The position numbers and the translations under genes are program-made. Of a stretch of 64,000 nt of DNA, positions 630 to 23,137 are shown piece after piece. Where the stretch lies: the NCBI GenBank assembly GCA_964610335.1, contig CAZSVP010000002.1:78376-142375 (forward strand), in the 5' to 3' direction. Positions within the stretch are counted from its first letter, which is position 1. Every line of letters begins with the position of its first letter. The stretch comes from an uncultured Candidatus Saccharibacteria bacterium (lineage in GTDB: Bacteria; Patescibacteriota; Saccharimonadia; CAILAD01; BJGX01). The notes beneath the pieces were generated by a model that made no database searches, had not been told where the DNA came from, and saw only the letters and a list, made by a program, of their open reading frames with translations.

Positions 630-642
630 AACACTTCCTTTA

Positions 643-999: not shown

Positions 1000-1010
1000 A
1001 GTATTGCTCC

Positions 1011-1556: not shown

Positions 1557-1563
1557 AATCTAC

Positions 1564-1959: not shown

Positions 1960-1970
1960 AATCTTTTTTC

Positions 1971-2240: not shown

Positions 2241-2241
2241 G

Positions 2242-3149: not shown

Positions 3150-3150
3150 C

Positions 3151-4385: not shown

Positions 4386-4386
4386 A

Positions 4387-5363: not shown

Positions 5364-5366
5364 GGG

Positions 5367-8031: not shown

Positions 8032-8125
8032 GTATATCCCTATAAAACAATAATCCTGGCAAACCTAGTGCCGGTTTCCGGGTGAGTCGGACCTGGCGGT
8101 TTCCCAGTTGTCTGTATCGCAAACT

Positions 8126-8155
8126 AGTGTATCAGATTACCCGATCTGGTGTCAA
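8126..8155 (-). promoter_or_regulatory. Candidate sigma70 promoter of the rplC operon (TTGACA-18-TACACT) followed by a ~95-nt leader
   Basis: Minus-strand sequence cTTGACAccagatcgggtaatctgaTACACT lies about 95 nt upstream of the rplC ATG. Confidence 0.5.
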
Positions 8156-8166
8156 GTACATTTTTG

Positions 8167-8418
8167 CTAGAAGCTAAGACTTATACCTAAGCCGTACAGT
8201 CCTAGTAAGGCGCCCACTACCAACAAACCAAATTCTACCCTACGATCTATCCTCAACGACTCTACAAAGTGTACAATTACGAAACCGATTATTAGACCAA
8301 TTGGGATGAGCCTATGACCACCTGGAGCCAGCCATACCGAGCCCAATATCAGGTAAAATGCAGACTTCCAAATAAATGCAAAATCAGATTGAGTAAGAAA
8401 GCGTAAGAGTTTCTTCAT
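8167..8418 (-). CDS. Small integral membrane protein (2-3 TM helices), unknown function
   Basis: 83-aa hydrophobic ORF with its own upstream hairpin terminator. Confidence 0.5.
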   Translation of the reverse strand: MKKLLRFLTQSDFAFIWKSAFYLILGSVWLAPGGHRLIPIGLIIGFVIVHFVESLRIDRRVEFGLLVVGALLGLYGLGISLSF

Positions 8419-8444
8419 TGAACTTAGTTTAGCACTACGACTGC

Positions 8445-8480
8445 TAAACCAAAAGGCCAGGTTCGCTAAAGCGATTGCCT
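8445..8480. terminator. Bidirectional-type intrinsic terminator hairpin (AGGCCAGG...CCTGGCCT flanked by A/T runs)
   Basis: 8-bp GC stem with T-run on the plus strand and A-run on the other side; it follows the 8506..8874 gene on the minus strand. Confidence 0.55.
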
Positions 8481-8505
8481 GGCCTTTTTGGAAAAGTAGT
8501 GAATA

Positions 8506-8874
8506 CTACTTCATCAAGTGAATGCCACCGATCAATGGCAATGGTGCCATCTTGTGGTTGGTGACGTTGACAATACCTAGAATTGCCAAGACCAAGAATC
8601 CGATCCAGATAACCCAAGATATCAAGAATAGTGGCCAGAAGATAAAAGCCGCAATCCAGAACACGGCATACACTACTACTTCAGCCACAAACAGGGTAAG
8701 ACCTTGTTTGGCGTGATACTGTGCAAATTCAGAATCTTTGGCTGCTAGCAATGGGATCAAGCACAAGATTCCAAGGTAAGCCAATACCCCCATCAACATA
8801 TCGTTGTCATTACCGCCTTTGTGTGCTGGAGCTGGCGCTGCTGCTGGCTGGTTTTCTTTCTTTGGTTCTTCCAT
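8506..8874 (-). CDS. DUF4870-like small membrane protein (HAKQGL motif family)
   Basis: 122 aa with N-terminal Pro/Ala-rich region, then GVLAYLGILCLIPLLA...QYHAKQGLTLFV and TM helices; promoter TTGCAT-17-TACAAT and RBS AAGGAGA upstream. Confidence 0.6.
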   Translation of the reverse strand: MEEPKKENQPAAAPAPAHKGGNDNDMLMGVLAYLGILCLIPLLAAKDSEFAQYHAKQGLTLFVAEVVVYAVFWIAAFIFWPLFLISWVIWIGFLVLAILGIVNVTNHKMAPLPLIGGIHLMK

Positions 8875-9006
8875 GATTATCTCCTTTTTTTGATAAAGCT
8901 AATGTTGTTTTGCTTGAGATCAATTGTAGTATGGTTTGAGCTGTAATGCAAAACCAGTAAGTATCTTGCCAAAATAATTGCTGAGCCGGTTTCTGCCATA
9001 CACGGA

Positions 9007-9522
9007 CTACTCCGAGTACGGCAGAAACCTGTGCTCGACCGGTTCGCCTTCGCCACCGAACAAGAACTCGCCAACTAGTCTCTCATCGGCCAGAAGGCGC
9101 GGCATCCACAAGCGGTCAAATGGCCACATGTCATCGAGTGGCAGATCATCAATACGAAAGGTCTCGGGCCGCATCTCATCTGTCTCTTGTGGCACACCCG
9201 ACCAATTGTCGCAGAGAATCACTTGAGCTTGTTGATTCCAACCCTCAGTAATCGGGATATCACGAAAGTAGAAGTTGAGATAGGCCACCCGCCGCATGGT
9301 GTTGAGCCGGACCGTGGACTCTTCTTCTGTCTCACGATACGCACACTTCCAAACCGACTCACCTTCTTTCGTCTTGCCGCCAAACCCGTTCCATTTGCCG
9401 ACACCAAAGCCCTGCTTCTTCATACCGAGTACTACCTCGCCGCCGCGTCGCAGCAACACAATCGTTACCACTCGCAATGGGCGTGGAACTGTGGCTTTGA
9501 ACTGCTCAAGATTCATGCTCAC
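9007..9522 (-). CDS. NUDIX hydrolase, MutT/NUDT1 (8-oxo-dGTP pyrophosphatase)-like
   Basis: Nudix box GGKTKEGESVWKCAYRETEEES (Gx5Ex7REuxEExG); MTH1-like GFGVGKWNGFGG. Confidence 0.8.
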   Translation of the reverse strand: MSMNLEQFKATVPRPLRVVTIVLLRRGGEVVLGMKKQGFGVGKWNGFGGKTKEGESVWKCAYRETEEESTVRLNTMRRVAYLNFYFRDIPITEGWNQQAQVILCDNWSGVPQETDEMRPETFRIDDLPLDDMWPFDRLWMPRLLADERLVGEFLFGGEGEPVEHRFLPYSE

Positions 9523-9576
9523 CTCCTTTTAGTCGAGCTAGATTGAATTATGCGCTTCACCCCATACACAATCAAG

Positions 9577-11220
9577 CTATATTTGCACCAATGTCCCTTT
9601 CAGCTTTTCGCGGAAGTAGTTGTCGTGACTGACATAGAGTATTGCACCTTCATAGCCCAGCAGAGCATTTTCGAGTTCTTCAATGCTGGGCAGATCCAGA
9701 TGATTGGTAGGCTCATCGAGTACCAACAGGTTTGGGTTGTTACAAAGCATTTTGATGAGTTGAAAGCGAGCCTTTTGGCCACCACTGAGTTGCTCGAGCT
9801 TGAGCTTCATATCGCGATGTGGCTCAAACAAGTATCCTGAGGCAATTTGAGCAGCTTTTTCAGGGTTCATTTCTATGCCAGCTGCCCGATAGACTTGCTC
9901 GATTGCTGCGACCAAGGTCAACTTCAATAGCTCAGGGCTAATCTCTTGCTCGTAGTAGCCAAGTCGCAGTTTTTGGTCATGCTCGATCTCACCGGCAAAT
10001 ATCTTGGGTTCAAGTGGCTCGCCAGCTACTATACTGAGTAGTGCCTTGATCAAGGTAGATTTACCAGCACCATTGCGACCACGCAGCTCTACCTTGTCTC
10101 CAGTATGTAGCTCAAAACTGACATCGTTAAATAGTGGTTCAACATAGCCAATCGACAGATCACGCACAGTTACAAGCTGCTGGTAACTTTGCTGGTTTTG
10201 ATCAATCCCGACTTGGATATTACGCGCCTTGTACTTCTCATATTGCTCAGTCAGCTTGGGTTGCATTTGCTTGGCCGAATCTTGGTCGATCCAAAATGAT
10301 GGTTTTACTAGATTCTTCTCCAGCTCGGCAATATCACGCTCAAAGCGCCGCACCAGTGGAATAAACGGATTGGGGGTCTTGCTACTACTAGCCTTCTTGC
10401 GATTGGCTTCAGCAAGCTGTTTTTTGAGATTGATCAAGGTTTTGGTCTGTACCTCGTACTGGTTCATACCAGCTACAGTCTGGCTACTGTTTTGGCGTAG
10501 ATAGGCATCGTAGTTGCCATTGAATATGTAGGCTTGGTGATCACGTACTTCGATGATTTGATCGACTACTGCTAGCACATCGCGATCGTGGCTTACCAGT
10601 ACCACTGCGCACTTAGCTGCCCCGAGCCAAGTGATAAACTCTGCCTTGGCCACATAGTCCATATGATTGGTAGGCTCATCGATCAGTGCCAGATCGACAT
10701 GGCTCTCGGCTATTTTGACTAGTTCTACAAACCGTTTTTGGCCACCCGATAGGTTGCTCAGCTGCCCATTGGCCACTTCGGCATTCAGCTGATACTTTTC
10801 GAGTTCTTGGAGTACACTATCCTCAGCTCGGTAGTAGTCGAGCTGACTGAAGCGCTCGATGGCATCGGTGTAGCTATGCAACTGATCTTCGGTTGGATCT
10901 TTCAAGTTCGGATAAGACTCAATCGTATGCTTGAGCTTGGTGTATTCGGGCAATTCATTGAGTACATACTCGAGCACTGTAAGATCAGCCACTTCGGTAT
11001 GTTCCTGGCGAGTCTCACCTATCACCAGCCCCTTCTTGCGATGAATGTCGCCGACGTACTCGGTATCTCGCCCAGATAGCAGGCCCAGCAAGGTGGACTT
11101 ACCCACTCCGTTGCGCCCGATTATTGCCACCTTCTGCTTTTCTTGCAAAGTTAAGCTTAAGTCGCGCAGCAGCAACTTCGAACCCATAGTCTTTTCTTCG
11201 ATTTCAGCTTGTATGATCAT
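9577..11220 (-). CDS. ABC-F family ATPase (EttA/YbiT-like translation factor; two ABC domains, no TM domain)
   Basis: 547 aa with two Walker A motifs (GRNGVGKST, GRNGAGKST) and two signatures (LSGGQKRF, LSGGQKAR) separated by a linker. Confidence 0.85.
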   Translation of the reverse strand: MIIQAEIEEKTMGSKLLLRDLSLTLQEKQKVAIIGRNGVGKSTLLGLLSGRDTEYVGDIHRKKGLVIGETRQEHTEVADLTVLEYVLNELPEYTKLKHTIESYPNLKDPTEDQLHSYTDAIERFSQLDYYRAEDSVLQELEKYQLNAEVANGQLSNLSGGQKRFVELVKIAESHVDLALIDEPTNHMDYVAKAEFITWLGAAKCAVVLVSHDRDVLAVVDQIIEVRDHQAYIFNGNYDAYLRQNSSQTVAGMNQYEVQTKTLINLKKQLAEANRKKASSSKTPNPFIPLVRRFERDIAELEKNLVKPSFWIDQDSAKQMQPKLTEQYEKYKARNIQVGIDQNQQSYQQLVTVRDLSIGYVEPLFNDVSFELHTGDKVELRGRNGAGKSTLIKALLSIVAGEPLEPKIFAGEIEHDQKLRLGYYEQEISPELLKLTLVAAIEQVYRAAGIEMNPEKAAQIASGYLFEPHRDMKLKLEQLSGGQKARFQLIKMLCNNPNLLVLDEPTNHLDLPSIEELENALLGYEGAILYVSHDNYFREKLKGTLVQI

Positions 11221-11237
11221 TTGAGTACTTTTGAATA

Positions 11238-11570
11238 CTAGATAAACCAGGCCACTAGCCCGTGTTGAGCAATCTTATCACGATATCCTGGATAACTGTA
11301 CCATTCCTGTTTGGCTTGTTCGATATTTTCGACTAGTGGCATAACATTATGCAGACCAACCGCTGCTACAAGTTCTTCAATGCTAGGATATATCTCAACC
11401 CGCTTTACCGCCTTGGTAATTGTTTCTTTGCCACAGCGAATTACTAGCTCATCACCTACAGCTACCTTGCGATACTTCGGTGTAGCTGCACGCGACTCGA
11501 CAGTCTTGCGACCATCGACAATGGCATCAAAACTCTTGTCGCCAGCCCGAAATACTAGGTTGCGTTTCAT
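11238..11570 (-). CDS. ASCH (PUA-like) domain protein
   Basis: 110 aa; FDAIVDGRKTVESR is the typical ASCH N-terminal beta-barrel motif. Confidence 0.65.
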   Translation of the reverse strand: MKRNLVFRAGDKSFDAIVDGRKTVESRAATPKYRKVAVGDELVIRCGKETITKAVKRVEIYPSIEELVAAVGLHNVMPLVENIEQAKQEWYSYPGYRDKIAQHGLVAWFI

Positions 11571-11650
11571 AGATTGATTGTAACAAATAAGTTGTTTTTT
11601 TTTGGCAAGTCTGTAATATTAGAAGTAACAATAATTTTTGGAGGATGGTT

Positions 11651-12175
11651 ATGCCCGAACCAAAACCAAGCAATGATCCTATAGAAGATTTTACGCCAGC
11701 AGTTGATGTAACTGAGCTCGAGCCAGCCGAATACAAGATTTACGATTCATCTGATATGGTTGACTATATAGAAAATGGTGGCTCGACTGAGCCAAGTATT
11801 TCCTATGACGCACTTCTGGGCGATTCTGAGCGAGCGGATTCCATGCTAAAAGCTATCCCAAAAGAAGAACGTGGTTCTATTGTAAAGAGTGCCAGACAAG
11901 AGGCGGCCAAAATGTATAAAGAAGGCGATGACGAGCAGACTGAGCTCGACCGCCGAAGCGCAATTGAAGAGAGGGAGGCAAAAGCCCTCTATGACACATT
12001 GTCAACAGATGACAAACTAGTTGCTGTCCAAGATGAGCTAAAAGCCGATCTAAATGAAGCTTTAGTAGCACTTCAAATGAAATACCCTACTCCTGACGAC
12101 ATGCCAGCCGAGCTTAAGGCACGACTAATCAAGTTGCGTGACAAAATAAACAAGAAACCCGAATTAACGCAGTAA
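11651..12175 (+). CDS. Acidic hypothetical protein (start taken at the second ATG, after GGAGG)
   Basis: Roughly 175 aa, rich in Asp/Glu and predicted helical; GGAGG 6 nt upstream of the ATG at 11651; ends at the terminator at 12177. Confidence 0.55.
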   Translation: MPEPKPSNDPIEDFTPAVDVTELEPAEYKIYDSSDMVDYIENGGSTEPSISYDALLGDSERADSMLKAIPKEERGSIVKSARQEAAKMYKEGDDEQTELDRRSAIEEREAKALYDTLSTDDKLVAVQDELKADLNEALVALQMKYPTPDDMPAELKARLIKLRDKINKKPELTQ

Positions 12176-12176
12176 C

Positions 12177-12204
12177 TAAAAAGCCCCGAATTCGGGGCTT
12201 TTTA
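12177..12204. terminator. Bidirectional intrinsic terminator (aaaAGCCCCGaattCGGGGCTtttt)
   Basis: Perfect 7-bp GC stem flanked by an A-run and a T-run; serves the convergent plus gene and rpsJ (minus). Confidence 0.85.
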
Positions 12205-12220
12205 TGAGTGAGAGCTCAAT

Positions 12221-12541
12221 TTACATCTTAATTTCGATGTCCACGCCGGCAGGCAAGCTCAGATTCATAAGGTTGTCGACAGTCTTAGGAGTTGGCTCGG
12301 TGATGTCGATCAAACGCTTATGAGTACGCATCTCGAACTGCTCACGAGCGTCTTTGTAGACATGTGGGCTTGAGAGTACTGTGTACTTCTTCTTATCGGT
12401 AGGCAGTGGCACTGGTCCAGCGACTTGGGCACCGGTGCGAATGGCCGTATCGATAATCTGCTTGGCCGATTGGTCGATAATCTTGTTATCGTAGGCCTTG
12501 AGCTTGATGCGAATGCGTGGTTTGGAAGGTACGTCTGGCAT
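12221..12541 (-). CDS. rpsJ: 30S ribosomal protein S10
   Basis: 106 aa beginning [21 protein letters not shown], the canonical S10 start; sits downstream of tuf rather than upstream of rplC. Confidence 0.93.
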
Positions 12542-12553: not shown

Positions 12554-13732
12554 TTACTTGATGATCTTACTGACCACACCGGATCCTACAGTCTTACCAC
12601 CTTCGCGGATAGCGAAGCGGAGGCCGTCGTCCATAGCAATTGGGGCAATCAATTTAACCTTAACGCTAATGTTGTCACCAGGCATAACCATCTCAGTACC
12701 TTCTGGAAGTTCAACTTCACCAGTTACGTCGGTAGTACGGAAGTAAAACTGTGGTTTGTAGCCCTTGAAGAAAGGAGTGTGTCGTCCGCCTTCTTCTTTC
12801 TTCAATACATATACTTCACATTCAAATTCGGTGTGAGGGGTAATGCTACCTGGTTTGGCAAGCACTTGACCGCGCTCGATGTCTTCGCGCTCAATACCGC
12901 GCAAGAGAACACCTACGTTGTCACCAGCTTGACCTTGGTCGAGTAGCTTCTTGAACATCTCAACGCCAGTTACAACTGACTTGGTGGTGGCTTTGATACC
13001 AACGATTTCAACTTCTTCGTTGACCTTGATCACACCACGCTCTACACGACCGGTAGCAACTGTACCACGGCCTTTGATAGAGAAGACGTCTTCGATAGGC
13101 ATAAGAAATGGCTTGTCGATATCTCGTACTGGATCTTCGATGTAACTATCCATGGTGTCGAGCAGCTCTTGGATGCTCTTCTCGTACTCGGCATCACCTT
13201 CGAGAGCCTTAAGTGCAGAACCCTTGATGATAGGAGTCTTCTCTCCTGGGTAACCGTATTTGTCGAGCAATTCGCGGATTTCTACTTCTACAAGCTCGGC
13301 TAGTTCTGGGTCAGCCATATCCATCTTGTTCATGTACACGATGATTTGCTTCACACCAACTTGGCTGGCAAGCAAGATGTGCTCGCGAGTTTGAGGCATA
13401 GGACCGTCAGCAGCAGATACTACCAGGATTGCAGCATCCATCTGTGCGGCACCGGTGATCATGTTTTTGACATAGTCAGCATGGCCTGGGCAGTCGACGT
13501 GCGCATAATGACGCTTGTCTGATTCGTACTCAGAGTGAGTAGTAGCAATAGTAATACCACGCTCTTTCTCTTCTGGTGCGTTATCAATATCGGCGTAGCT
13601 TTTGGCCTGAGCCTTACCAGATTTGGCAAGGTAGGTAGTGATGGCCGCAGTCAAAGTAGTCTTACCATGGTCAACGTGACCGATGGTACCAACATTGACA
13701 TGGGTTTTGTCACGATTAAATGTATCTGACAT
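12554..13732 (-). CDS. tuf: Elongation factor Tu
   Basis: 392 aa with [23 protein letters not shown] and NKMD motifs. Confidence 0.97.
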
Positions 13733-13933: not shown

Positions 13934-14269
13934 TTATTCTCCCTCCTCAAGAGCTTCGTACAGGATCTTGTAGGCTTCTTCTACCACAGTTGGAGGGTTG
14001 CGCCGAATCAGCTTGCGAGCTGTGTGAACACACACTGTCCAGATGATCATGTAGATTGCCAACGATGCACATAGTCCACCGATCATCACGGCCAGGCCAG
14101 GGTCAGCACTTCCCCCAAAGACCATCGTGAGGCCTACGCCTGTGAACATAGCATGCATCCAAAGCGCCTGGAACCACAACGACCGACTAAACGGATTGGC
14201 ATCGAGATAGCCAGCCAACAGTCCTGCTCCATGATGGAGATACCAGAACTCGTCTGGCTTACGCCTCAT
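13934..14269 (-). CDS. Hypothetical membrane protein (elevated GC)
   Basis: 111 aa with 2-3 TM helices; local GC clearly above the genome background; start/stop overlaps the upstream ORF. Confidence 0.55.
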   Translation of the reverse strand: MRRKPDEFWYLHHGAGLLAGYLDANPFSRSLWFQALWMHAMFTGVGLTMVFGGSADPGLAVMIGGLCASLAIYMIIWTVCVHTARKLIRRNPPTVVEEAYKILYEALEEGE

Positions 14270-14589
14270 GGTCGTTCCTTGGAATCGTCGCGAAGGTCGA
14301 GGCTCTGACGCTGCGACAGCCGGACGATGTCCCGACGGCCACCGTAGTAGACCCGAAGCTTGGCGTTGACCAGCTTGATGGGCTCACCCACTACCACAAA
14401 CAGCAAGGGTAAGCCAAAGGCTAGCAACAAGCCGATCGGAATGGAAAGCAAGCTCCATAGCAGGTAGCTCCAGCGCTCGTTGAGAAGTGCCATCAGACAG
14501 CCACCTGTGATCACCACGCTGCACATCAGCATGATCACTATCTCGTAGGTCACACTCAGATTGCGTTGGTAATTGGTATCGTCGTACAA
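14266..14589 (-). CDS. Hypothetical membrane protein (elevated GC)
   Basis: 107 aa with two TM helices and a C-terminal soluble segment; translationally coupled to the next ORF. Confidence 0.55.
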   Translation of the reverse strand: MYDDTNYQRNLSVTYEIVIMLMCSVVITGGCLMALLNERWSYLLWSLLSIPIGLLLAFGLPLLFVVVGEPIKLVNAKLRVYYGGRRDIVRLSQRQSLDLRDDSKERP

Positions 14590-14640
14590 GACAAAGCCTC
14601 CAGGTTGAGAAAGAACAATTGTTGGCGATAATACGCCGTC

Positions 14641-14674
14641 GGGCGGTCTCGGAGCGCGATGTCCGAGACCGCCC
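14641..14674. repeat. Perfect 13-bp inverted repeat hairpin (GGGCGGTCTCGGA-8nt-TCCGAGACCGCCC)
   Basis: Seen in sequence between two high-GC ORFs; no U-run follows. Confidence 0.7.
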
Positions 14675-14698
14675 TAGTTGATAGCGCCTGAGGTGCCA

Positions 14699-14947
14699 CT
14701 AAGCGGATTCGTCAGGTGATTCCGCGCGGCTCAAGCGCTCTTGCACCACTCGCAGGGTTGCCTCGTCGATTGAGTCGGCTGGTCCTGCGGCTGGATGCTT
14801 GGCCACTTCTGCATCAGTCGGCTTACGCCGCTGGCTGAGTGGTGTTACCACGTTTGAGACGTGGTGGGTTTCATCGGCCAGACTCTCGTCTGGCGCTGGC
14901 ACGGTATCGTCATCGCCTGGCATTGCTGCCTCCTGGAATGATGACAA
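14699..14947 (-). CDS. Hypothetical acidic/Pro-rich protein (high GC)
   Basis: 82 aa; GC-rich codons; RBS GGAGG upstream. Confidence 0.45.
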   Translation of the reverse strand: MSSFQEAAMPGDDDTVPAPDESLADETHHVSNVVTPLSQRRKPTDAEVAKHPAAGPADSIDEATLRVVQERLSRAESPDESA

Positions 14948-15128: not shown

Positions 15129-15551
15129 ATGGCCAAAAAGAAAACTTCCGTAGCCAGAATCAAAAATCAAACTAAGCAAGAAAATAATTCATACGTCAAT
15201 TGGCTAATAGGTATAGTGATTGTTGTATTGGTTGCAGTTATTGGCATTGTAGTCGTAAACTTCTCCGATGCTGCCAATGCTCCAAACGGACAAGGTACAT
15301 ATCGTATAGAAAGCGCACAAACTTCTCCTGATGGTGCAACTACTAAAATTACATTTTCTATCGACCGTAACTATACGTTGACTAGAGTTGGAAAGTTTCA
15401 GTCTGGAGCTATCAAGTGGAAGCTAAATGGCCAATGTTATACAGTTGCGAGCGCTGCTGGGAGTGACTTTAAATCACTTGGTACAAAGCGAGAAAAATAT
15501 TACGACAATCAGCAGATTGTAGCTACTAGAAAAACCTCCTGTAATCTCTAA
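15129..15551 (+). CDS. Membrane-anchored/secreted hypothetical protein
   Basis: 140 aa with N-terminal basic region plus one TM helix; AT-rich promoter region upstream; terminator follows. Confidence 0.55.
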   Translation: MAKKKTSVARIKNQTKQENNSYVNWLIGIVIVVLVAVIGIVVVNFSDAANAPNGQGTYRIESAQTSPDGATTKITFSIDRNYTLTRVGKFQSGAIKWKLNGQCYTVASAAGSDFKSLGTKREKYYDNQQIVATRKTSCNL

Positions 15552-15635: not shown

Positions 15636-17747
15636 CTAGGATGTACCAGCTTCACGAGCAGCAGTATATTTGCCCTTGAGCTCCTCGGCTACTTGGCCAG
15701 GAACCTCAGCATAGTGGTCAAATTCCATAGCGTAAGCTGCACGACCCTGAGTCATACTGCGCAAGCTAGTAGAGTAGCCAAACATCTCAGCTAGTGGTAC
15801 AAACGCCACTATGTGCTTAGCACCACTACGATCTTCCATGTTCTCAACACGACCACGCTTGGCATTGATATCACCTATCACATCACCCATGAACTCTTCA
15901 GGAGTAGTTACTTCTACTTTCATGGTAGGCTCCATAATAACTGGAGTGGCCTTGCGAACACCCTCTTGGAGCGCCATGCTACCGGCAATCTTAAAGGCAA
16001 CTTCACTAGAGTCCACCTCGTGGTAACTACCATCGTAGAGTTTGCAATGAACATCTACTACTGGATAACCAGCAATTACGCCGTTCTGCATGGCTTCTTT
16101 GACGCCAGCTTCTACAGGATTTATATACTCCTTGGGGATAGCACCACCAACGATAGCGTTTTCAAATTCAAATATCTTGTGTTTGTCGTCTTCTTCAGTT
16201 TTGGCAAGTGGGCTAAGCTCTAGCCAGACATGACCAAATTGACCACGACCACCTGATTGGCGCACAAACTTGCCTTCCACTTGAGCAGTACTCTTAATGG
16301 TTTCACGGAAGGCTACCTGCGGACGACCAACATTGGCCTCGACCTTGAACTCACGCTTCATACGGTCTACCAACACGTCGAGATGCAACTCACCCATACC
16401 CGCAATGATAGTCTGGCCAGACTCTTCGTCAGTAGTTACACGGAAGGTAGGATCTTCTTCGGCCAAGCGAGCTAGTGCCAAACTCATCTTCTCTTGGTCG
16501 GCTTTGGTCTTAGGCTCAACGGCAATACTAATAACTGGCTCAGGAAATTCAATGCTTTCAAGCAACACGTGTTGCTTCTCATCGCACAGAGTGTTACCAG
16601 TCACAGTGTTTTTGAGTCCTACTGCAGCAGCTATTTCACCAGCGTAGACTTCGTTTACCTCTTCGCGATTGTTGGCGTGCATACGTACGATGCGGCCAAT
16701 TCGCTCTTTCTCGCCGGTACTTACATTTACTACATAGCTACCTGATTTGAGCGTGCCCGTATAAACACGGAAAAAGCACAGCTTACCAACAAATGGATCA
16801 GTTGCTATCTTAAACGCCAACCCAGCAAATGGCTCATCATCGCCCACCTTGATTACTTTTTCTTCGCCAGTCTTAGCATCAGTGGCAAGTGGCGGAGCGA
16901 TATCGAGAGGGCTTGGCAAGTAGTCTACTATCAGATCAAGTAGCTTCTCTACCATCACGCCACGACCATCGCCACCGCTTACTATGAAGAAGTCGCCGCG
17001 CAGCACGCTCTTGCGGATTACTTCTTTGATTTCTTCTTTGGTCAATTCGCCGCCGTCGAGGTATTTCTCAAGCAATGTGTCGTCAGATTCTAAAGCAGCT
17101 TCGATCAAATGATTGCGATACTTCTCAGCCTTCTCGCGCATGTCTTCAGGGATCTCGCCTTCAATCAGCTCCTTGTCAGTATAGTCACTATAGGTATAGG
17201 CTTTCATATCCACTAAGTCAATCACGCCATTGATCTCTTGTTCGAAGCCAATTGGCAGATGAATAGGATAAGCATGACGGCTCAAGCGCTCATGAATACT
17301 CTCGAGCGACTTGTAGAAGTCACCACCGGTTTGGTTGATCTTATTAATAAAACAGATGCGGGGCACACCATATTTGTTGGCTTGGCGCCAAACAGTTTCG
17401 GACTGGGGCTCCACACCCATCTTACCGTCAAAGATAACGGCAGCGCCGTCAAGCACACGCAAGCTACGCTCTACTTCGACCGTAAAGTCGATGTGACCAG
17501 GAGTGTCGATGATGTTGATACGATGCTTGTTCCAAAAACAGGTGGTAGCAGCCGAAGTAATAGTGATCCCACGCTCTTGTTCCTGTTCCATCCAGTCCAT
17601 GGTAGCCTCGCCCTGATGAACCTCACCAATCTTGTGCACCTTACCAGTACGGTAAAGGATGCCCTCGGTAACGGTAGTCTTACCGGCATCGATGTGAGCA
17701 ATAGTCCCTATATTACGAGTAACCTCAAGTGAATATTCACGTGCCAT
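15636..17747 (-). CDS. fusA: Elongation factor G
   Basis: 703 aa with [17 protein letters not shown] and EF-G domains IV/V. Confidence 0.97.
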
Positions 17748-17877
17748 AACGTGTTGTAGTATCCTTTCTTAAATTCTAGTGCGTAAAAGTAATGTAAAGA
17801 CGGTCAGCACTAAGCTGACTGTTTGCGGATAATTATAGCTGATTTCTTGATAGGACACAAGCAACAAACATTAATGT

Positions 17878-17907
17878 ATTGACATTTAGAGGCTTTGCTG
17901 GTTAAAT
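17878..17907 (+). promoter_or_regulatory. Candidate promoter (TTGACA-18-TTAAAT) for the plus-strand high-GC cassette, divergent from fusA
   Basis: attGACAtttagaggctttgctggTTAAATatataac lies about 55 nt upstream of the GTG at 17961. Confidence 0.5.
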
Positions 17908-17960
17908 ATATAACTAGCTGTACCAACCATATCCATCCAGCACTCTCAGGGAGGTCCTAA

Positions 17961-18362
17961 GTGAGTGCAAGTCAGCAAGAAAAGATAGAGCAGTACCGTT
18001 TCTGGGGCGAGCGAGTCGCGAGTGGAGACACCGCGTTCGTGATGCCACTGGCCCGTGCCATCAGGTCTGGTGAGATCACCGCACCGAAGGCAGGGACCAC
18101 TCAGAAGCGGATCCGCGAGGTCATGCGCCAGCGCTTTCACGAGGCCCACCAGAGGGCGATCTGGTGCAAGAAGTACGGCGAGCGCATGAACGGCCGCGGC
18201 GTGCTATGCAAGCTCGGCCTGGAGCTGGCGGAGTCGGCCAACTGGGGCAACCTGCTCCACGTGACGCCCACCGACTTCGGAGCCAGCTTCGAAGAGCTAT
18301 ACGAACTCGCCGATCACTTCGGTGTAAGCGACCGCCTGCAGTTCGTCGCCATGGCGAGCTGA
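17961..18362 (+). CDS. Hypothetical protein (about 62% GC; GTG start after GGGAGG)
   Basis: 133 aa; RBS GGGAGG 5 nt upstream; strong GC shift relative to the neighbours. Confidence 0.6.
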   Translation: MSASQQEKIEQYRFWGERVASGDTAFVMPLARAIRSGEITAPKAGTTQKRIREVMRQRFHEAHQRAIWCKKYGERMNGRGVLCKLGLELAESANWGNLLHVTPTDFGASFEELYELADHFGVSDRLQFVAMAS

Positions 18363-18408
18363 TCGCGAGTTCAACATGGGTGCCTCATCGGGGGAAAGGC
18401 ACCACCCG

Positions 18409-18453
18409 TTCGGGGCTCCGGCACTTGGCCGGAGCCCCGGGTGGGTCATTTTT
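18409..18453 (+). terminator. Intrinsic terminator (CGGGGCTCCGGC-loop-GCCGGAGCCCCG followed by a T-run)
   Basis: 12-bp GC stem followed by gtcatttttattt. Confidence 0.8.
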
Positions 18454-18531
18454 ATTTATATTGACTTTATTGACCAAAAGTTGTAGCATAGATTCCCGAT
18501 CGCTACATTCGCCCACCAAGGAGGCATAACT

Positions 18532-18981
18532 ATGCCTAGCGACGCATACCACACGTTGGCACTGAAGTCCGCTACCCTAGCTCACTACCGTGCCGTCCAT
18601 GAAGGAAGTGGTACTCACGAGCAGTACAGACTGGTACTCAAGGCCATCGATGCCGGTGACATCATACCTGTTGAGATCGGCACCAGCTACCGAGAACTCG
18701 GAGCCCATAATCGCCAATGGATTCGTAATCTGTTGGAGGATGCAAGCTTCGACGGTCTCCCGCAGCACATGCCAGGGGATGTGAGGGTCGCTTACAGGCA
18801 GCTGATCAAGCAACTCGAGCTGCTCAATAGCCTGCAGCATCCTCGCCTGCGGCTCACCCTCGGCCAGCTCAAGATCACTCTGCCGCAGCTGCGCCAACTC
18901 GGCGAGCCGCTTGGTCTGAGCCACCTCGTGGACGACGCCGACCTCGCAGTCGGCAGCTGGCACCACAAGAAGTCCGCCTGA
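18532..18981 (+). CDS. Hypothetical protein (high GC)
   Basis: 149 aa; RBS AAGGAGG; promoter-like TTGACT-17-TAGCAT upstream. Confidence 0.6.
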   Translation: MPSDAYHTLALKSATLAHYRAVHEGSGTHEQYRLVLKAIDAGDIIPVEIGTSYRELGAHNRQWIRNLLEDASFDGLPQHMPGDVRVAYRQLIKQLELLNSLQHPRLRLTLGQLKITLPQLRQLGEPLGLSHLVDDADLAVGSWHHKKSA

Positions 18982-19011
18982 TTCACTCGCCCGTCAACCA
19001 GGAGGTTTCTC

Positions 19012-19308
19012 ATGGGCAAACATGTGGTAACCAACAAGGAGATCAAACGGCTGTACCGTCGGCTCGAAGGGCTGCCATTTGTGCACAAGGTGCACACCTG
19101 CGCCCTCCAGCCAGGAGCAGCATCGGGCAAGCCTCGCGTGGAGTACCGCCACGGCAGTGCCGAGCCTGGCTCGCACCGCGTACCGGCAGTCATTAAGGCT
19201 GGAGGCTGTGCCCAACGGGTGTTCATCACCCTACGCGTTGACGAAGGCGAGTCCTTCAGCGACAAGCTCAAGTTGTTGCTCGCCGAGCCCGAGGTGATCG
19301 CCAACTGA
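19012..19308 (+). CDS. Hypothetical protein (high GC)
   Basis: 98 aa; RBS AGGAGG; co-oriented and closely spaced with the previous ORF. Confidence 0.55.
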   Translation: MGKHVVTNKEIKRLYRRLEGLPFVHKVHTCALQPGAASGKPRVEYRHGSAEPGSHRVPAVIKAGGCAQRVFITLRVDEGESFSDKLKLLLAEPEVIAN

Positions 19309-19365
19309 CACCGTCCCCGTCTGAGACCGGATGCAAAACGCTCCTGTTTCGGCCGGGGCGTTTTG

Positions 19366-20034
19366 CTATTTATAGGTTAGTTCTACAAAGAATCGGCTTT
19401 TACTCGGCTTTTGAATTTGTTTGATAAGATCTGCCATACTTTCCATATACGGTGATTTTCCAAAGTCAGTGCCAAATTCACTCCAAAACATCTCACCATA
19501 TGGTGTCTCCTCACGCAGAGTGCCGGTCGGGTTTCGTCCATAAAACAAATGAAAGCATATCTGGCTGACTGGCTCACCACCTTCGTTGATAATAATATAG
19601 CCATCACCGCGATGTGTGAGTTTGCAACTCAAACCAGTCTTTTCCATCAACTCACGTGTAGCAGCCTCGGCAACCGTTTCTCCCAAATGTAGTTTGCCAT
19701 ACGGAAATCCAACTTGGCCAATCAGTGGTTGGTGTTTGCGTCGATACAACAGCCACTGCCCAGCCTTGTTCTGTACTGCCACTAGTGTGACTATCTTCGG
19801 TTGCAACCTAGTTTTCAGTGTGCGCAGGCTTACTTGGTCGACATACAATTTGCCTTGAGTCGTGAGACTATATAGACCATCGGCTCGTTTCTCTACCAAT
19901 CCCTCACGCATCAGTGCTCGCAGGTGATACATGAAGTGATTGCTCTCCAAATGCTTAGGTTTTAGTTGTGAAAATCGTAAGCTATCCGCCGCAATTAGCT
20001 TAGCTAGTATTTCTTTCTGGATAACATGCATCAT
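19366..20034 (-). CDS. Winged-HTH + NUDIX domain protein (reversed-order NrtR-like regulator/hydrolase)
   Basis: 222 aa; N-terminal MarR/ArsR-like wHTH (NHFMYHLRALMREGLVEK); C-terminal Nudix box GKLHLGETVAEAATRELMEKTGL; native low GC. Confidence 0.7.
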   Translation of the reverse strand: MMHVIQKEILAKLIAADSLRFSQLKPKHLESNHFMYHLRALMREGLVEKRADGLYSLTTQGKLYVDQVSLRTLKTRLQPKIVTLVAVQNKAGQWLLYRRKHQPLIGQVGFPYGKLHLGETVAEAATRELMEKTGLSCKLTHRGDGYIIINEGGEPVSQICFHLFYGRNPTGTLREETPYGEMFWSEFGTDFGKSPYMESMADLIKQIQKPSKSRFFVELTYK

Positions 20035-20198
20035 GTAAGTAAGTATTAAGTAAAATGGCAGAAGTTAAAAAGTGCTTACTCGCATTATTTCAGTCAAAAA
20101 ATTTTGAGTCAAGCATAATTACTTCTACATATCTACACTGACTGATTGGTTAGCTCAAAGTACGCTTAGAGTGTTCTTTGACAACTTGGAGGAAACCA

Positions 20199-20900
20199 AT
20201 GAGCAAGCTCACTACTATCGATACCCTACCCATCCCCATGCTTGTTCTCGACAGCGGCCCATGCGCTGGCAAGTCCACCATTCTCTCAGCCATCGAAGAT
20301 CGGTTCGACGAGCAAGTTCTGACAGTGCCTGAAGCTGCAACCCAAGTACTGGCTGAAGAGGTTGTAGCCAAGCCCGATCAGAATCTGCTGGAGTGGTACG
20401 ACCGAATCGACGCTGCCGAGTCCAAGGCTGCAATCTGGCGCGAATATAGACATCACCTGCAAGATGCTGTGCTCAAGCGCATGATCGAGCTCGAAACTGT
20501 TGCTCAGCAACAGGCCTGCGAACAAGGCAGGAAGCTGATCGTCGTGGACCGTGGAGCTGCCGGAGTGAGTCATTTCCACCCTGATGGCAATGCTTGCTGG
20601 TCCAAGCTCACCTGGGCACGAATCCACCATCTGGATGCAGTGTCCGCACTCAGCCGATACCATTCTGTCATCTTGTTGGAATCACTGGCAATACACCATC
20701 CAGAGTTGTACAAAAAGCACTGCGCCAGCAACCCAGTTCGAGGCGAGACTACTCAAGAGGCAGTGGCGCAGCAATGCGGCATTCGTGCTGCCTGGAGCAA
20801 ACACGCACGCTGCGCCCATATCTGCAACTTTGGGCGCAGCATCGATGATGTGACCAGGCTGGTTTACAACCACATCGAACAAACAATTGGCGAACTATGA
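20199..20900 (+). CDS. P-loop NTPase / small kinase-like protein (AAA_28/AAA_33-like), elevated GC
   Basis: Walker A DSGPCAGKST and Walker B-like LIVVDRG; GGAGG precedes the ATG at 20199 (the ORF is open from 20178). Confidence 0.6.
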   Translation: MSKLTTIDTLPIPMLVLDSGPCAGKSTILSAIEDRFDEQVLTVPEAATQVLAEEVVAKPDQNLLEWYDRIDAAESKAAIWREYRHHLQDAVLKRMIELETVAQQQACEQGRKLIVVDRGAAGVSHFHPDGNACWSKLTWARIHHLDAVSALSRYHSVILLESLAIHHPELYKKHCASNPVRGETTQEAVAQQCGIRAAWSKHARCAHICNFGRSIDDVTRLVYNHIEQTIGEL

Positions 20901-21283
20901 GCGGCAATCGCTGCCAAGTACAGGCTGCTGTATGGCGAGCCATGCGACTGGCTGAAGTATCACTCGACACTCCGGGAGCCACCGAAGTAGTTCGAGCTAT
21001 CACTTGGATCATTATGCAGCAAGCCATGATCCTCCAGCGCTTCCCACTTGATCAGAATGATCAGCACACCACGCAAGGATTCTGCCCAGACAATTACTGG
21101 CCACTCAAGTTCGGCAAGTTCTTGCACCGCGCGCAAACAATCGGCCTAGACTATCCCGAAGGTCGCCAAGCCATCGCCGAGCACGCCGCTACAGGAGTTG
21201 GCCTAATGGCATCGGTCTGGCGTTTGCATGGCTCGCCACCTCATATAAACGAGGTAGCTACCATTACAGTCAAACTCGAGTAG
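20897..21283 (+). CDS. Hypothetical protein (high GC), translationally coupled to the P-loop gene
   Basis: 128 aa; ATGA start/stop overlap with the upstream gene. Confidence 0.5.
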   Translation: MSGNRCQVQAAVWRAMRLAEVSLDTPGATEVVRAITWIIMQQAMILQRFPLDQNDQHTTQGFCPDNYWPLKFGKFLHRAQTIGLDYPEGRQAIAEHAATGVGLMASVWRLHGSPPHINEVATITVKLE

Positions 21284-21374
21284 ATCCGACTAGCCTGTCA
21301 AAGTTATGCTTGGTAAAGCATGATTACCCAAGTATAATCACCCCAGATCTTTCCCACTAGCCGAGGAGCAAACA

Positions 21375-22034
21375 ATGCCGACAACCGAAGCCCCAGTAAT
21401 CACCGAGCTTGAAGAAGTTGTGGCTCTCGAAGCTGAGCTACAAGCCATGTGCGCTGAGTACGACAGTCTTGGTGTCGAAATCTCGCGTTTGCAAGCCGTG
21501 CGAAGCGATATCGCTTTTGCAGTCACATTCCACGACAAGTCGCGCGAAGACGGAGAACCCTTGGTCAAGCGCTACAACCGAGTGGTGCGTCAAGCCGCAG
21601 CCGATCTGCTAGCCGAGCGCCAACTGGGGTGGTGCCTGGCAGGTGGACACTTCTGCAATGAGGCTGAGCTGTCATGTGCGAAAGCCATGTTCAGCCGCCG
21701 GAGCTACGACGTGAAGGACGGCTACGAAGACCACCATAAGTCAGTAATTGCCACAGCCTGCGCAGCTCACCCCGCTGGCGGATACCAAAATCCTGACTGG
21801 GGTCACAGCAAGCGGTTGGTAGCACGCAACGTTCACAACGTTGGGTTGGTGAGAAGAGCGATCAGTCGCTATCTGTTTGACTGCGGTTTCGAGAACCGAG
21901 AGCTTCACAGGTTCTTCGCCGAAGCAGGCCTGCCAACAGACATGTACTACCGCGATCGTGATGGCTGGTACTTCCGGCCAATCCCCGGACAAGACGGTCC
22001 GATGTACGGCCGAAAAGTCATCAATCTCGGCTAG
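21375..22034 (+). CDS. Hypothetical Cys/His-rich protein (high GC)
   Basis: 219 aa; promoter TTGGTA-17-TATAAT and RBS GAGGAG upstream. Confidence 0.55.
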   Translation: MPTTEAPVITELEEVVALEAELQAMCAEYDSLGVEISRLQAVRSDIAFAVTFHDKSREDGEPLVKRYNRVVRQAAADLLAERQLGWCLAGGHFCNEAELSCAKAMFSRRSYDVKDGYEDHHKSVIATACAAHPAGGYQNPDWGHSKRLVARNVHNVGLVRRAISRYLFDCGFENRELHRFFAEAGLPTDMYYRDRDGWYFRPIPGQDGPMYGRKVINLG

Positions 22035-22234: not shown

Positions 22235-22711
22235 CTAGTAGCGAGCGAAGTGAGCAAAAGCCTTATTAGCCTCAGCCATCTGGTGAGCATCTTGCTTCTT
22301 CTTAACAGCATCGCCTTCTTCGTTGAAAGCAGCAATCAGCTCTTTGCTAAATTTAACATCAAATCCAGCACCACTCTTGTTGCGTGCCGAGTCCATAAGC
22401 CACATCAGGGCATAGTGAACCTTGCGGTCGCCTTTGACTTCCATAGGGACTTGGTAGTTGGCACCACCGATACGTCGAGATTTAACCATCACTTGTGGAC
22501 TAACGTTCTTAACTGCAGTTTCGAGGACCTCGAGTGGCTCTTTCTTGGTCTTAGCTGCTGCTTGTTCGAGTGCGCTGTAGACCAGCTTCTCAGCCATTCG
22601 CTTTTTACCACTTACCATGACTTTGTTGATGGTCTTAGTAACCAACACTGAATTGTAAACAATGTCAGGAGTAAGTTCGCGCTTGAGAGATTTAGTAGTT
22701 TTACGAGGCAT
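22235..22711 (-). CDS. rpsG: 30S ribosomal protein S7
   Basis: 158-aa ORF with S7-like sequence. Confidence 0.93.
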   Translation of the reverse strand: MPRKTTKSLKRELTPDIVYNSVLVTKTINKVMVSGKKRMAEKLVYSALEQAAAKTKKEPLEVLETAVKNVSPQVMVKSRRIGGANYQVPMEVKGDRKVHYALMWLMDSARNKSGAGFDVKFSKELIAAFNEEGDAVKKKQDAHQMAEANKAFAHFARY

Positions 22712-22714
22712 GGG

Positions 22715-23137
22715 TTATTCCTTCTTACCACCTTGAGACTTAGTACCATATTTGCTGCGGCCTTGTTTACGACCATCAACTCCAGCCGTATCAAGATTGC
22801 CACGAACTATGTGGTAACGCACACCACCAAGATCCTTAACTCGACCACCACGTACTAGCACCACTGAGTGCTCTTGCAAGTTGTGTCCCTCACCAGGTAT
22901 GTAAGCGGTTACTTCCATACCGTTGGTTAGGCGCACACGAGCCACCTTACGCAAAGCCGAGTTTGGCTTACGAGGAGTTTGTGTATACACCTTCACACAT
23001 ACACCACGTTTAAACGGCGCATTGAGCGGACGAGTCCGCACACTAAGCGCGTTAAACGAGCGCCCGAGGGCTGGAGACTTAGTCTTGGTAGACTTGGTCT
23101 TGCGAGGTTTTCGAATTAATTGATTGATGGTTGGCAT
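22715..23137 (-). CDS. rpsL: 30S ribosomal protein S12
   Basis: 140 aa beginning [10 protein letters not shown] with PNSALRK, canonical S12. Confidence 0.95.

Follow-up and report, generated by a model that had tools for sequence, protein, structure and literature searches.

Hendrix and colleagues are said to have described phage morons, which are autonomous promoter-gene-terminator units found in lambdoid prophages. In polymorphic toxin systems, poly-immunity arrays are made up of small cytoplasmic proteins encoded by tandem paralogs, which are highly diverse in their alleles and exchange sequence by recombination. In Patescibacteria up to 13% of the genome length has been attributed to transfer, mostly among Patescibacteria, and the genomic islands of these bacteria carry acquired genes, many of which are hypothetical (PMC12455944).

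The locus considered here is a three-gene cassette in the window, the whole 64,000-nucleotide stretch of Saccharibacteria DNA that was analysed. The cassette splits rpsG from fusA in the str operon (rpsL-rpsG-fusA-tuf), with fusA, rpsG, rpsL, rpoC, tuf and rpsJ among the wider neighbours. It resembles the morons in that every unit carries a sigma-70-like promoter and an intrinsic terminator of its own (both predicted here), in a composition unlike that of the flanks (GC 0.60 against 0.47; GC3 0.70-0.80 against 0.42-0.48) and in a position that separates two genes lying next to each other in relatives, a site at which such units come and go. Unlike the morons, it is placed in a bacterial ribosomal-protein/elongation-factor operon and not in a prophage, there are no phage genes nearby, and its units, rather than being sporadic, are fixed in both of two species-level clades. 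With the Patescibacteria islands (PMC12455944) the cassette shares the presence of acquired genes in a small-genome bacterium. It differs from them in measuring 1.4 kb (4.5 kb with its neighbours), in lying inside the str operon, in a GC3 excess of about 0.3 and in having no nameable donor lineage. What is described here is thus far a well-characterised accessory islet and does not amount to a system of a new kind.

We consider it probable that the cassette represents horizontally acquired, moron-like accessory units in the str operon, which code for putative protein-binding proteins. Two self-contained accessory transcription units would be lodged in the operon, their genes having been acquired horizontally, perhaps on more than one occasion, from a GC-rich gene pool that has not been sampled. 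They would behave like phage morons, as autonomous promoter-gene-terminator modules of deviant composition set between conserved genes. If this is true, the conserved rpsL-rpsG-fusA-tuf operon of a reduced genome has been colonised by autonomous foreign genes, which have then become fixed and keep recombining. The features of the cassette are as follows.

17879-17907, + strand: promoter of gene 1 (TTGACA, 17-nt spacer, TTAAAT)
17949-17954, + strand: Shine-Dalgarno sequence of gene 1 (GGGAGG), 6 nt upstream of the GTG at 17961
17961-18362, + strand: gene 1, 133 aa, GTG start, GC 0.627, GC3 0.80; a paralog of gene 2
18379-18456, + strand: 3' structure of gene 1, with a 7-bp hairpin (18379-18403), a GC-rich terminator hairpin with a 19-bp stem (18404-18446) and a U run
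18461-18489, + strand: promoter of the gene 2-gene 3 unit (TTGACT, 17-nt spacer, TAGCAT), from the promoter scan
18518-18524, + strand: Shine-Dalgarno sequence of gene 2 (AAGGAGG), 7 nt upstream of the ATG at 18532
18532-18981, + strand: gene 2, 149 aa, ATG start, GC 0.593, GC3 0.70; all-alpha predicted fold
19000-19005, + strand: Shine-Dalgarno sequence of gene 3 (AGGAGG), 6 nt upstream of the ATG at 19012
19012-19308, + strand: gene 3, 98 aa, ATG start, GC 0.613, GC3 0.74, pI 9.7; a small basic alpha/beta protein (predicted)
19312-19372, both strands: terminator-like hairpin region where gene 3 and the NUDIX gene converge

Predicted unit 1 consists of promoter, gene 1 and terminator, and predicted unit 2 of promoter, gene 2, gene 3 and terminator. 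Genes 2 and 3 are separated by 30 nt, and the stop codon of gene 2 is followed at a distance of 18 nt by the Shine-Dalgarno sequence of gene 3. Three ORFs of 133, 149 and 98 aa, the first with a GTG start, had been proposed in the original prediction and were located on the + strand. They had also been described as opposite in strand to all of their neighbours. This is the case for fusA and the NUDIX gene but not for the three genes next in line (20178-22034), which are also on the + strand and are GC-enriched too (54-57%).

The TTGACA-17-TTAAAT arrangement of the first promoter is its sole match in the window, where 0.06 would be expected by chance, and the hexamers are unchanged in eight alleles of the two clades while the spacer differs. 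The hexamers are those named in the original prediction; the spacer is one nucleotide shorter than the 18 nt given there. A second promoter-like element before gene 2 had been anticipated correctly. It is kept in nine sequences of the two clades with a varying spacer, and its -10 hexamer is TAGAAT in clade B. Adjoining the -10 hexamer on the 3' side is a box, CGATCGCT, which is invariant in all alleles. The consensus promoter scan taken alone is not significant, with eight sites compared with 4.5 +/- 2.2 in shuffles. The ribosome-binding sites foreseen as GGGAGG and AAGGAGG are present 6-7 nt before the starts, with AGGAGG serving gene 3; that of gene 1 is conserved, and clade B has ATG at the same start codon.

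A hairpin terminator does follow gene 1, as had been supposed, although in place of the single 12-bp stem there are two hairpins and the stem of the second is 19 bp. The loop of the first, AUCGGGGGAA, is conserved. The combined structure folds at -52.6 kcal/mol (z = -4.7), the site is also called by the terminator scan, and its stems are retained across alleles with both sides changing. The region after gene 3 folds at -27.5 kcal/mol on the + strand (z = -3.2) and -23.2 kcal/mol on the - strand (z = -2.7), and the terminator scan lists a site at 19342-19358. Both clades conserve the promoters, the ribosome-binding sites and the terminators of the two predicted units. An Rfam scan of the window returned four tRNAs only and no other RNA element.

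The three ORFs are genuine protein-coding genes under purifying selection. No stop codon interrupts the three + frames in any allele, and the mean pairwise difference per site at codon positions 1, 2 and 3 is 0.19, 0.15 and 0.36. Gene 1 has a dN/dS of 0.24-0.29, gene 2 one of 0.26-0.44 and gene 3 one of 0.0-0.21, compared with 0.00-0.02 in fusA. In sliding windows the ratio falls to 0.04-0.10 over gene 2 codons 101-125 and to 0.01-0.04 over gene 1 codons 81-100. Antisense coding, or spurious ORFs, was considered and rejected: the antisense ORFs are broken in other alleles, the + frames are intact and third positions vary most. Some gene callers chose antisense ORFs at the cassette.

The comparison covered about 45 metagenome contigs, which form two species-level clades, A and B. 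The gene order fusA, gene 1, gene 2, gene 3, NUDIX, AAA_28 and then rpsG is found in all but one of them (L014), and genes 2 and 3 are side by side in every contig. The cassette is restricted to one small lineage and always occupies the same site. Such conservation across two species-level clades indicates that it is not a recent strain-specific gain. Homologs conserved across the lineage in housekeeping roles had been named beforehand as evidence that would weigh against acquisition; the cassette is conserved in both clades and is not known to have a housekeeping role.

Within this fixed arrangement the alleles have evidently been swapped by recombination, both between strains and between clades A and B. 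Between L012 and L019 dS is 0.05 for fusA and 0.03 for gene 1 but 0.78 for gene 2, 2.07 for gene 3 and 1.5 for AAA_28. Gene 1 of the window shares 76% identity with clade B but 65-67% with L011, a strain of clade A, and the inter-clade dS of this gene is 0.66 compared with 1.8 for fusA. The allele trees disagree with the core tree, indicating recombinational exchange, and dS forms a mosaic along the island. A hypermutation or diversity-generating mechanism, suggested by one pair in which the fusA protein is 100% identical and gene 1 is 65% identical, was ruled out: fusA dS in that pair is 0.39, and the divergence runs the full length of the genes and is concentrated at third positions.

Additional units built in this way have also come and gone at the cassette site. 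L044 carries an extra FHA-domain gene (GC3 0.78) between genes 1 and 2, with its own predicted promoter and terminator, and in L034 the gene 1 slot holds a family member of 27-31% identity. Another unit of this build is present in the window at 46011-46720. In L014 genes 2 and 3 are 99.6% identical to those of a clade B strain, and at the terminator hairpin they adjoin DNA of 64-70% GC encoding an 873-aa orphan protein. Integron-type cassettes were discounted; the units have their own promoters, and a repeat search found no shared recombination-site repeats.

Scans of Pfam, PHROG, NCBIfam and PADLOC assigned no family to the three proteins, which bears out the earlier remark that they have no recognisable motifs. 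Searched member by member, 11 gene 2 and 10 gene 1 sequences gave no Pfam match even at E = 5, and PADLOC-DB offered nothing for genes 2 and 3 and a chance-level ZorG match for gene 1 (E = 0.035). Word-seeded searches of 5.8 billion clusters returned same-locus relatives only; the gene 2 homologs fall in 10 clusters of 60-99% identity, all of the same lineage. Outside the lineage, HMMER profiles run against 1.84 billion representative proteins matched just two repeat proteins, a tandem-repeat protein and a NACHT-TPR protein, neither of which is informative about relatives. There was no match to the gene 2 and gene 3 profiles in a PDB sequence search, no outside relative in GTDB species genomes (gene 2 profile) or JGI contigs (gene 3 profile), and no relative in IMG/VR and plasmids (all three genes) or in phage records (genes 2 and 3). 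The window contains no paralogs of the cassette genes elsewhere. An actinobacterial or host source, suggested in the original prediction, is unsupported since no homolog was found outside the lineage in any library searched, and all relatives are at the same locus.

Genes 1 and 2 are evidently tandem paralogs. The copy in the gene 1 slot of L034 matches gene 2 with 29% identity over 125 aa (E = 4e-7), and the two families align in hhalign with E = 7e-5. The AlphaFold2 model of gene 2 (pLDDT 85) has seven helices. The N-terminal two thirds of the protein are variable and residues 94-134, towards the C-terminus, are strongly conserved. A fold search with gene 2 returned generic helical repeats only. 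Residues 24-89 can be aligned with two TPR units of the NACHT-TPR protein (32% identity), a weak match (HMMER E = 6e-5 summed over six repeats; hhalign probability 22%). Gene 2 is predicted to be all-alpha and may, in the manner of TPR/Sel1-like proteins, form a stack of hairpins. It differs from them in having about two repeat units followed by a unique conserved C-terminal tail and in matching no Pfam TPR or Sel1 model; these models find no gene 1 or gene 2 sequence even at E = 5. The AlphaFold2 model of gene 3 has a pLDDT of 87, and Cys30, Cys66 and the motifs PGAASGKPR and IKAGGCAQ are invariant.

From these models we draw a tentative and, on balance, doubtful picture of function, in which genes 1 and 2 would be TPR-like binders of partner proteins, gene 3 would be independent of them and the setting would be one of host or phage rather than housekeeping. 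The products of genes 1 and 2 would be small helical-repeat proteins that bind a protein partner through the variable N-terminal two thirds, the conserved helix-turn-helix-like C-terminal tail serving a common function. Gene 3 would encode a small basic protein that acts independently and is not an allele-matched partner of gene 2, and the cassette would probably take part in an interaction with host or phage. The work adds two protein families with no relatives outside the lineage and with confident predicted folds, which are candidate lineage-specific interaction factors. To our knowledge, such factors are essentially unknown in this uncultivated group.

A related proposal, which we judge unlikely, is that genes 2 and 3 constitute a toxin-antitoxin or toxin-immunity pair, with gene 1 as an additional immunity or antitoxin paralog of the sort that makes up poly-immunity arrays and with the diversity maintained by frequency-dependent selection. 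Helical-repeat proteins are common immunity folds, and the cassette proteins are predicted to be cytoplasmic. Genes 2 and 3 are small, adjacent and predicted to be co-transcribed between one promoter and one terminator, and the alleles, which are highly diverse, are common to both clades. Tandem paralogs, allelic diversity and recombinational exchange are shared with the poly-immunity arrays. In contrast to the arrays, the cassette is without a toxin gene, an immunity-family match or detected positive selection, and gene 3 does not co-vary with gene 2. In L012 and L021 gene 2 is 97% identical and gene 3 just 64% identical, in L019 and L021 gene 3 is 100% identical and gene 2 is 77% identical, and within clade A the respective values are 97-100% for gene 3 and 65-89% for gene 2. 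This independent shuffling of the alleles argues against a cognate toxin-immunity pair. No gene with a toxin domain is nearby, genes 2 and 3 contain no recognisable toxin, antitoxin or immunity domain, and the scans matched none of the toxin, antitoxin, immunity or defence families already described. In sliding windows dN/dS nowhere exceeds 1 in the three genes and peaks at 0.74, so that an arms-race role gains no support.

Returning to horizontally acquired accessory units, the composition of the cassette bears on their origin. A GC content of about 60-62% had been predicted; the observed values are 0.593-0.627 per gene and 0.599 over 17961-19308, compared with 0.474 for the whole window. The comparison of GC3 with core genes that had been recommended places the cassette clearly above fusA, rpsG, rpsL and rpoC, with 0.70-0.87 in all alleles, and the GC could not be described as unremarkable. 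Among synonymous singletons in the clade A cassette, 30 changes run GC-to-AT and nine AT-to-GC (p = 0.001). The counts are 107 and 47 for all high-GC genes of this clade and 236 and 254 for the core, a difference in direction between high-GC and core genes with Fisher p = 3e-6. For the high-GC genes these counts point to an equilibrium GC3 of about 0.5 (0.51 for the cassette; range 0.46-0.51, the same as the core) compared with 0.77 now. Clade B, represented by four sequences only, has no such excess (22 compared with 18). In composition the cassette departs strongly from the genome, toward which it appears to be decaying at present. Foreign origin is supported because recent synonymous changes run from GC to AT toward the genome composition. 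Of the earlier proposal of horizontal, host-derived acquisition, the horizontal component is supported by this relaxing foreign composition and the discordance with the core tree; the host-derived component is not, no donor having been found in the libraries searched.

The same data bear on a further improbable explanation, namely that the genes are native and lineage-specific, in which case GC-biased gene conversion at a recombination hot spot, or else sequence-level selection, would preserve their high GC. The single fixed site in two clades, an inter-allele dS at or above the species divergence with GC3 still 0.70-0.87, a fusA-to-rpsG interval that is visibly recombinogenic as a whole and the missing donor would all fit. 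Nevertheless, the high-GC genes of clade A are biased from GC to AT with a core-like equilibrium, the NUDIX gene, although in the middle of this recombining interval, has an ordinary GC3 of just 0.43, and equally high-GC units exist at unrelated sites.

Some observations are awkward for simple versions of transfer. Very large libraries yielded no donor or outside homolog, which sits uneasily with recent or repeated import. All alleles have high GC3 despite inter-allele dS of 0.5-2, which is not what passive decay after one old transfer would lead to. Should GC be favoured, part of the GC-to-AT singleton excess could be polymorphism that is lost later. High GC3 despite deep dS, with no donor in the libraries searched, presents a puzzle concerning gene flow into CPR-type bacteria.

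A broader form of the transfer explanation, to which we attach a low probability, takes the GC-rich units as repeated imports from an unsampled GC-rich partner or element, of which L014 would offer the first glimpse. The units involved would be the cassette, the FHA unit of L044, the unit at 46011-46720 and the genes at 13934-14947 and 20178-22034, and the variable TPR-like proteins would be tools of symbiont-host or symbiont-element interaction.

It is highly improbable that the cassette encodes small DNA-binding regulators from a mobile element, with the helix-turn-helix-like tails at the C-terminus of both paralogs, genes 1 and 2, binding DNA such as the invariant box beside the -10 hexamer: the most constrained segments of both proteins are indeed C-terminal and fit, by eye, the pattern hxxLxxLxxxxG[VL]S, but a helix-turn-helix family match is absent even at E = 5 and the second helix of the gene 2 model has only five residues (131-135).

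Of the genes around the cassette, o128, o219 and the AAA_28 gene, like the cassette genes themselves, have no match in PHROG. Among the neighbours scanned, PHROG matches are confined to the NUDIX gene, which matches generic Nudix-hydrolase/regulator families and, weakly, a portal-protein family (E = 0.055). This gene also has a 46% match to a Kazan-group genome.

The window is a segment of bacterial chromosome in which minus-strand translation and transcription genes predominate, in the order rpoB, rpoC, rpsL, rpsG, then fusA, then tuf, rpsJ and the S10/spc ribosomal genes. In most bacteria rpsG and fusA are adjacent in the str operon. Here they are separated by about 4.5 kb containing seven genes, three of which are the plus-strand ORFs of the cassette. 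The features of the region are:

12554-13732, minus strand, tuf
15129-15551, plus strand, low-GC gene (GC 0.39, GC3 0.31) for 140 residues with an N-terminal membrane anchor
15636-17747, minus strand, fusA
17860-17832, minus strand, TTGTGT-17-TATAAT
17879-17907, plus strand, gene 1 promoter TTGACA-17-TTAAAT, the sole match in the window
17961-18362, plus strand, gene 1
18461-18489, plus strand, promoter TTGACT-17-TAGCAT of the gene 2-gene 3 unit, from a promoter scan
18532-18981, plus strand, gene 2
19012-19308, plus strand, gene 3
19366-20034, minus strand, winged-helix-NUDIX gene (best NCBIfam matches NadM-Nudix and ADP-ribose-type hydrolases)
20178-22034, plus strand, trio of an AAA_28 gene (NadR-kinase-like, ribosylnicotinamide kinase) and two orphans
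22235-22711, minus strand, rpsG
22715-23137, minus strand, rpsL

GC content is 0.60 over 17961-19308 against 0.474 for the whole window, and GC3 is 0.80, 0.70 and 0.74 in genes 1, 2 and 3, compared with 0.42-0.48 in fusA, rpsG, rpsL and rpoC. Pfam, PHROG, NCBIfam and PADLOC hold no family for the three proteins. The original prediction, which described GC-rich orphans with promoters, ribosome-binding sites and hairpins of their own, was right apart from details, and its interpretation is supported in part, the genes being foreign-looking orphans.

As high-GC DNA does, the cassette also carries long antisense ORFs; one of 129 residues is sometimes called instead of gene 2 by automatic callers, and greedy ORF picking gave one of 170. 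We compared 10-11 alleles. No allele has a stop codon in any plus frame, several alleles break the antisense frames, and antisense coding was rejected on these grounds. Mean pairwise differences per site at codon positions 1, 2 and 3 are 0.19-0.20, 0.15 and 0.36-0.37 in genes 1 and 2, and 0.11, 0.10 and 0.32 in gene 3. In pairwise comparisons gene 1 has a dN/dS of 0.24-0.29, gene 2 of 0.26-0.44 and gene 3 of 0.0-0.21; the corresponding values are 0.00-0.02 in fusA and 0.02-0.18 in the NUDIX gene. The three are functional genes, and purifying selection on them is relaxed. In one metagenome contig (L031) gene 1 runs on past its stop and into the terminator sequence, through a frameshift or an assembly error.

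Each gene has a Shine-Dalgarno sequence 6-7 nt ahead of its start codon: GGGAGG for gene 1, AAGGAGG for gene 2 and AGGAGG for gene 3. The promoter scan by itself was not above chance (8 sites versus 4.5 +/- 2.2 in shuffles). The hexamers of both promoters are unchanging across alleles of the two species-level clades that bear the cassette, A (the window type) and B, while spacers and flanks differ. Two hairpins and a U run follow gene 1 (-52.6 kcal/mol, z = -4.7), and another hairpin separates gene 3 from the convergent NUDIX gene. In the first hairpin after gene 1 (18379-18403) the loop sequence AUCGGGGGAA hardly varies across the two clades. The stem changes in a compensatory way (U-A in the window, C-G in the clade A contig L011). 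The hairpin has no Rfam match and may not be a terminator component only. On the other strand, the -10 element of the promoter-like sequence at 17860-17832 is unchanging in both clades, and fusA seems to have gained its own promoter and leader after separation from rpsG. A hairpin in that leader (17803-17822, GTCAGC/GCTGAC) is kept in clade B by two-sided changes (CCAGC/GCTGG).

All relatives of the cassette genes were found in metagenome assemblies from a single lineage, and they form ten clusters for gene 2, five for gene 1 and three for gene 3. The fusA protein of clade A is 99-100% identical to that of the window and that of clade B 95% (dS about 1.8). The order fusA, gene 1, gene 2, gene 3, NUDIX, AAA_28, rpsG holds in all but one of about 45 contigs, the exception being the 6-kb contig L014. 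The site is the same in both clades, and the cassette is therefore fixed in a small lineage rather than a strain-specific gain. The gene 2 profile matched nothing in the GTDB species genomes, and a full HMMER search with it of 1.84 billion representatives returned only its own family, a NACHT-TPR protein and a tandem-repeat protein that carries no information. Since no search found a donor, the actinobacterial host source first proposed is without support. The persistence of high GC3 without a detectable donor is, like the location inside rpsG-fusA, of real but moderate interest.

A rival explanation holds that the genes are native and that their GC-richness, which extends to all alleles of all cassette genes (GC3 0.68-0.87, including the 27%-identical gene 1 of contig L034), is kept by biased gene conversion. 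We polarised synonymous singletons in clade A, counting as derived a minority state present in a single one of the seven sequences. The three cassette genes have 30 GC to AT against 9 AT to GC changes (p = 0.001 versus equal counts), and pooling every GC-rich gene in the region gives 107 against 47 (p = 1.5e-6). These counts take in polymorphisms that might yet be lost through selection or biased conversion. Core genes are balanced (236 against 254, p = 0.44; Fisher test of GC-rich versus core genes, p = 3e-6). The equilibrium GC3 implied by per-site rates is 0.46-0.51 for the GC-rich genes and 0.47 for the core genes; the former are therefore under the ordinary substitution process of the genome, out of equilibrium. 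Such a pattern marks acquired DNA that has not finished ameliorating. The four clade B sequences show no GC to AT excess (22 versus 18).

Genes 1 and 2 are tandem paralogs. In L034 the gene 1 slot holds a divergent copy with 27-31% identity to other gene 1 alleles and 29% identity to window gene 2 over 125 residues (E = 4e-7), and an alignment of the two family profiles spans 121 columns (E = 7e-5). The confident gene 2 model (pLDDT 85, pTM 0.78) is all-alpha, with seven helices. The TPR units of the NACHT-TPR protein align to residues 24-89 with 32% identity; because this profile match is weak (hhalign probability 22%), 'TPR-like' is a weakly supported structural description of gene 2 and not a family assignment. 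Codons 11-90 of gene 2 are variable (dN/dS 0.3-0.47) and codons 101-125 tightly constrained (0.04-0.10), with the sequence LQHPRLRLTLGQLKITLPQLRxLGEPLGLS. In gene 1, codons 51-85 are relaxed (about 0.7) and codons 81-100 nearly frozen (0.01-0.04). No codon window of either gene exceeds a dN/dS of 1. Gene 3 encodes a basic alpha/beta protein of 98 residues (pI 9.7; model pLDDT 87) with invariant Cys30 and Cys66 and motifs PGAASGKPR and IKAGGCAQ; a structure search gave no specific match. The favoured reading of function, at low confidence, is that genes 1 and 2 encode small helical-repeat proteins whose variable N-terminal two thirds would contact a protein partner; the conserved C-terminal tail would serve a shared role, and gene 3 would be an independent small basic protein. 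A rival reading makes the cassette proteins small DNA-binding regulators. Any specific role is unsupported.

Synonymous divergence is a mosaic along the rpsG-fusA interval. Between the clade B contigs L012 and L019, dS is 0.05 in fusA, 0.03 in gene 1, 0.78 in gene 2, 2.07 in gene 3 and 1.5 in AAA_28; between L019 and L021, also of clade B, it is 0.02 in fusA, 0.64 in gene 2, 0.03 in gene 3, 0.62 in NUDIX and 1.0 in AAA_28. For window gene 1 the closer clade is B (76% identity, dS 0.66); clade A strains are further away, L011 for example at 65% (dS 1.09). The reverse holds for fusA (dS 1.8 to clade B versus 0.39 to L011). Gene 3 is near-identical within clade A (dS 0.07-0.3, lower than fusA), which suggests that a single allele spread recently. 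Alleles of genes 2 and 3 assort independently: L012 and L021 share gene 2 (97% identity; gene 3, 64%), and L019 and L021 share gene 3 (100%; gene 2, 77%). A conflict pair of genes 2 and 3, either cognate toxin-immunity or toxin-antitoxin, is hard to reconcile with this assortment.

The best-supported account of the units is structural and evolutionary. On this account they are accessory units with autonomous transcription and a foreign composition. They have become fixed in one lineage's str operon, their composition is still drifting toward that of the host, and strains exchange them by recombination. Phage morons are the nearest analogue in build; morons are defined by phage context, which is absent here, and we therefore do not file the cassette among them. 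Acquired orphan islets have been described as common in Patescibacteria (PMC12455944), and the cassette is a further case.

Further units are also gained at the site. Contig L044 (431-934) carries an extra GC-rich FHA-domain gene between genes 1 and 2 (167 residues, GC3 0.78), complete with a promoter and a terminator of its own, and L032 and L034 have 70-110 nt insertions in the same spacer with extra promoter-like remnants inside. Elsewhere in the window, surrounded by unrelated core genes on the minus strand, is another unit built in this way:

46011-46720, plus strand, whole unit, including a ribosome-binding site
46011-46039, promoter TTGACT-17-TATAAT
46089-46664, plus strand, 191-residue orphan ORF (GC 0.61, GC3 0.77), without Pfam match or similarity to the cassette
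about 46668-46715, GC-rich hairpin

Contig L014 (JGI 3300045378 Ga0490020_005631, 1-6002; 64% GC) matches a clade B contig at 99.6% identity over a stretch that runs from the right arm of the hairpin terminating gene 1 across gene 2 and reaches into gene 3. Upstream of the hairpin are unrelated 64-70% GC genes, one of them an 873-residue orphan with GC3 0.89; none of these genes has a relative in any library searched. The junction, observed once only, may have arisen as a chimera during assembly, the GC hairpin there being palindromic, or may be a first view of a GC-rich pool or real second genomic context.

The NUDIX gene is divergent from the AAA_28 trio, and the region (19366-22034) looks like a module for NAD/ADP-ribose salvage or regulation. 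NUDIX has native GC (0.44; its plus-strand neighbours 0.54-0.57), and its best match in the GTDB species genomes is from a Kazan-group (CPR) genome (46% identity), by which the lineage would probably belong to the Patescibacteria. Recombination is heavy in the plus-strand neighbours, with dS reaching 1.5 between near-identical strains.

In this lineage, insertions occur generally at the junctions of the ribosomal super-operon. The gene at 15129-15551 occurs only in window-type strains (L001, L002 and L004), is missing from L011, L027, L032 and clade B, and is a strain-specific insertion with a compositional bias opposite to that of the cassette. The str operon is interrupted a second time at the fusA-tuf junction, by three small GC-enriched minus-strand genes (13934-14947; 111, 107 and 82 residues; GC 0.53-0.60), two of which look like membrane proteins; inter-clade identity is only 38-48%, versus 95% for fusA. 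The rplC-rpsJ interval (8031-12221) likewise holds inserted non-ribosomal genes, encoding a 547-residue ABC-ATPase, a 110-residue ASCH-like protein, a 171-residue NUDIX protein (GC 0.54) and a small membrane protein, and this set varies between clades (L011 versus L012 and L019).
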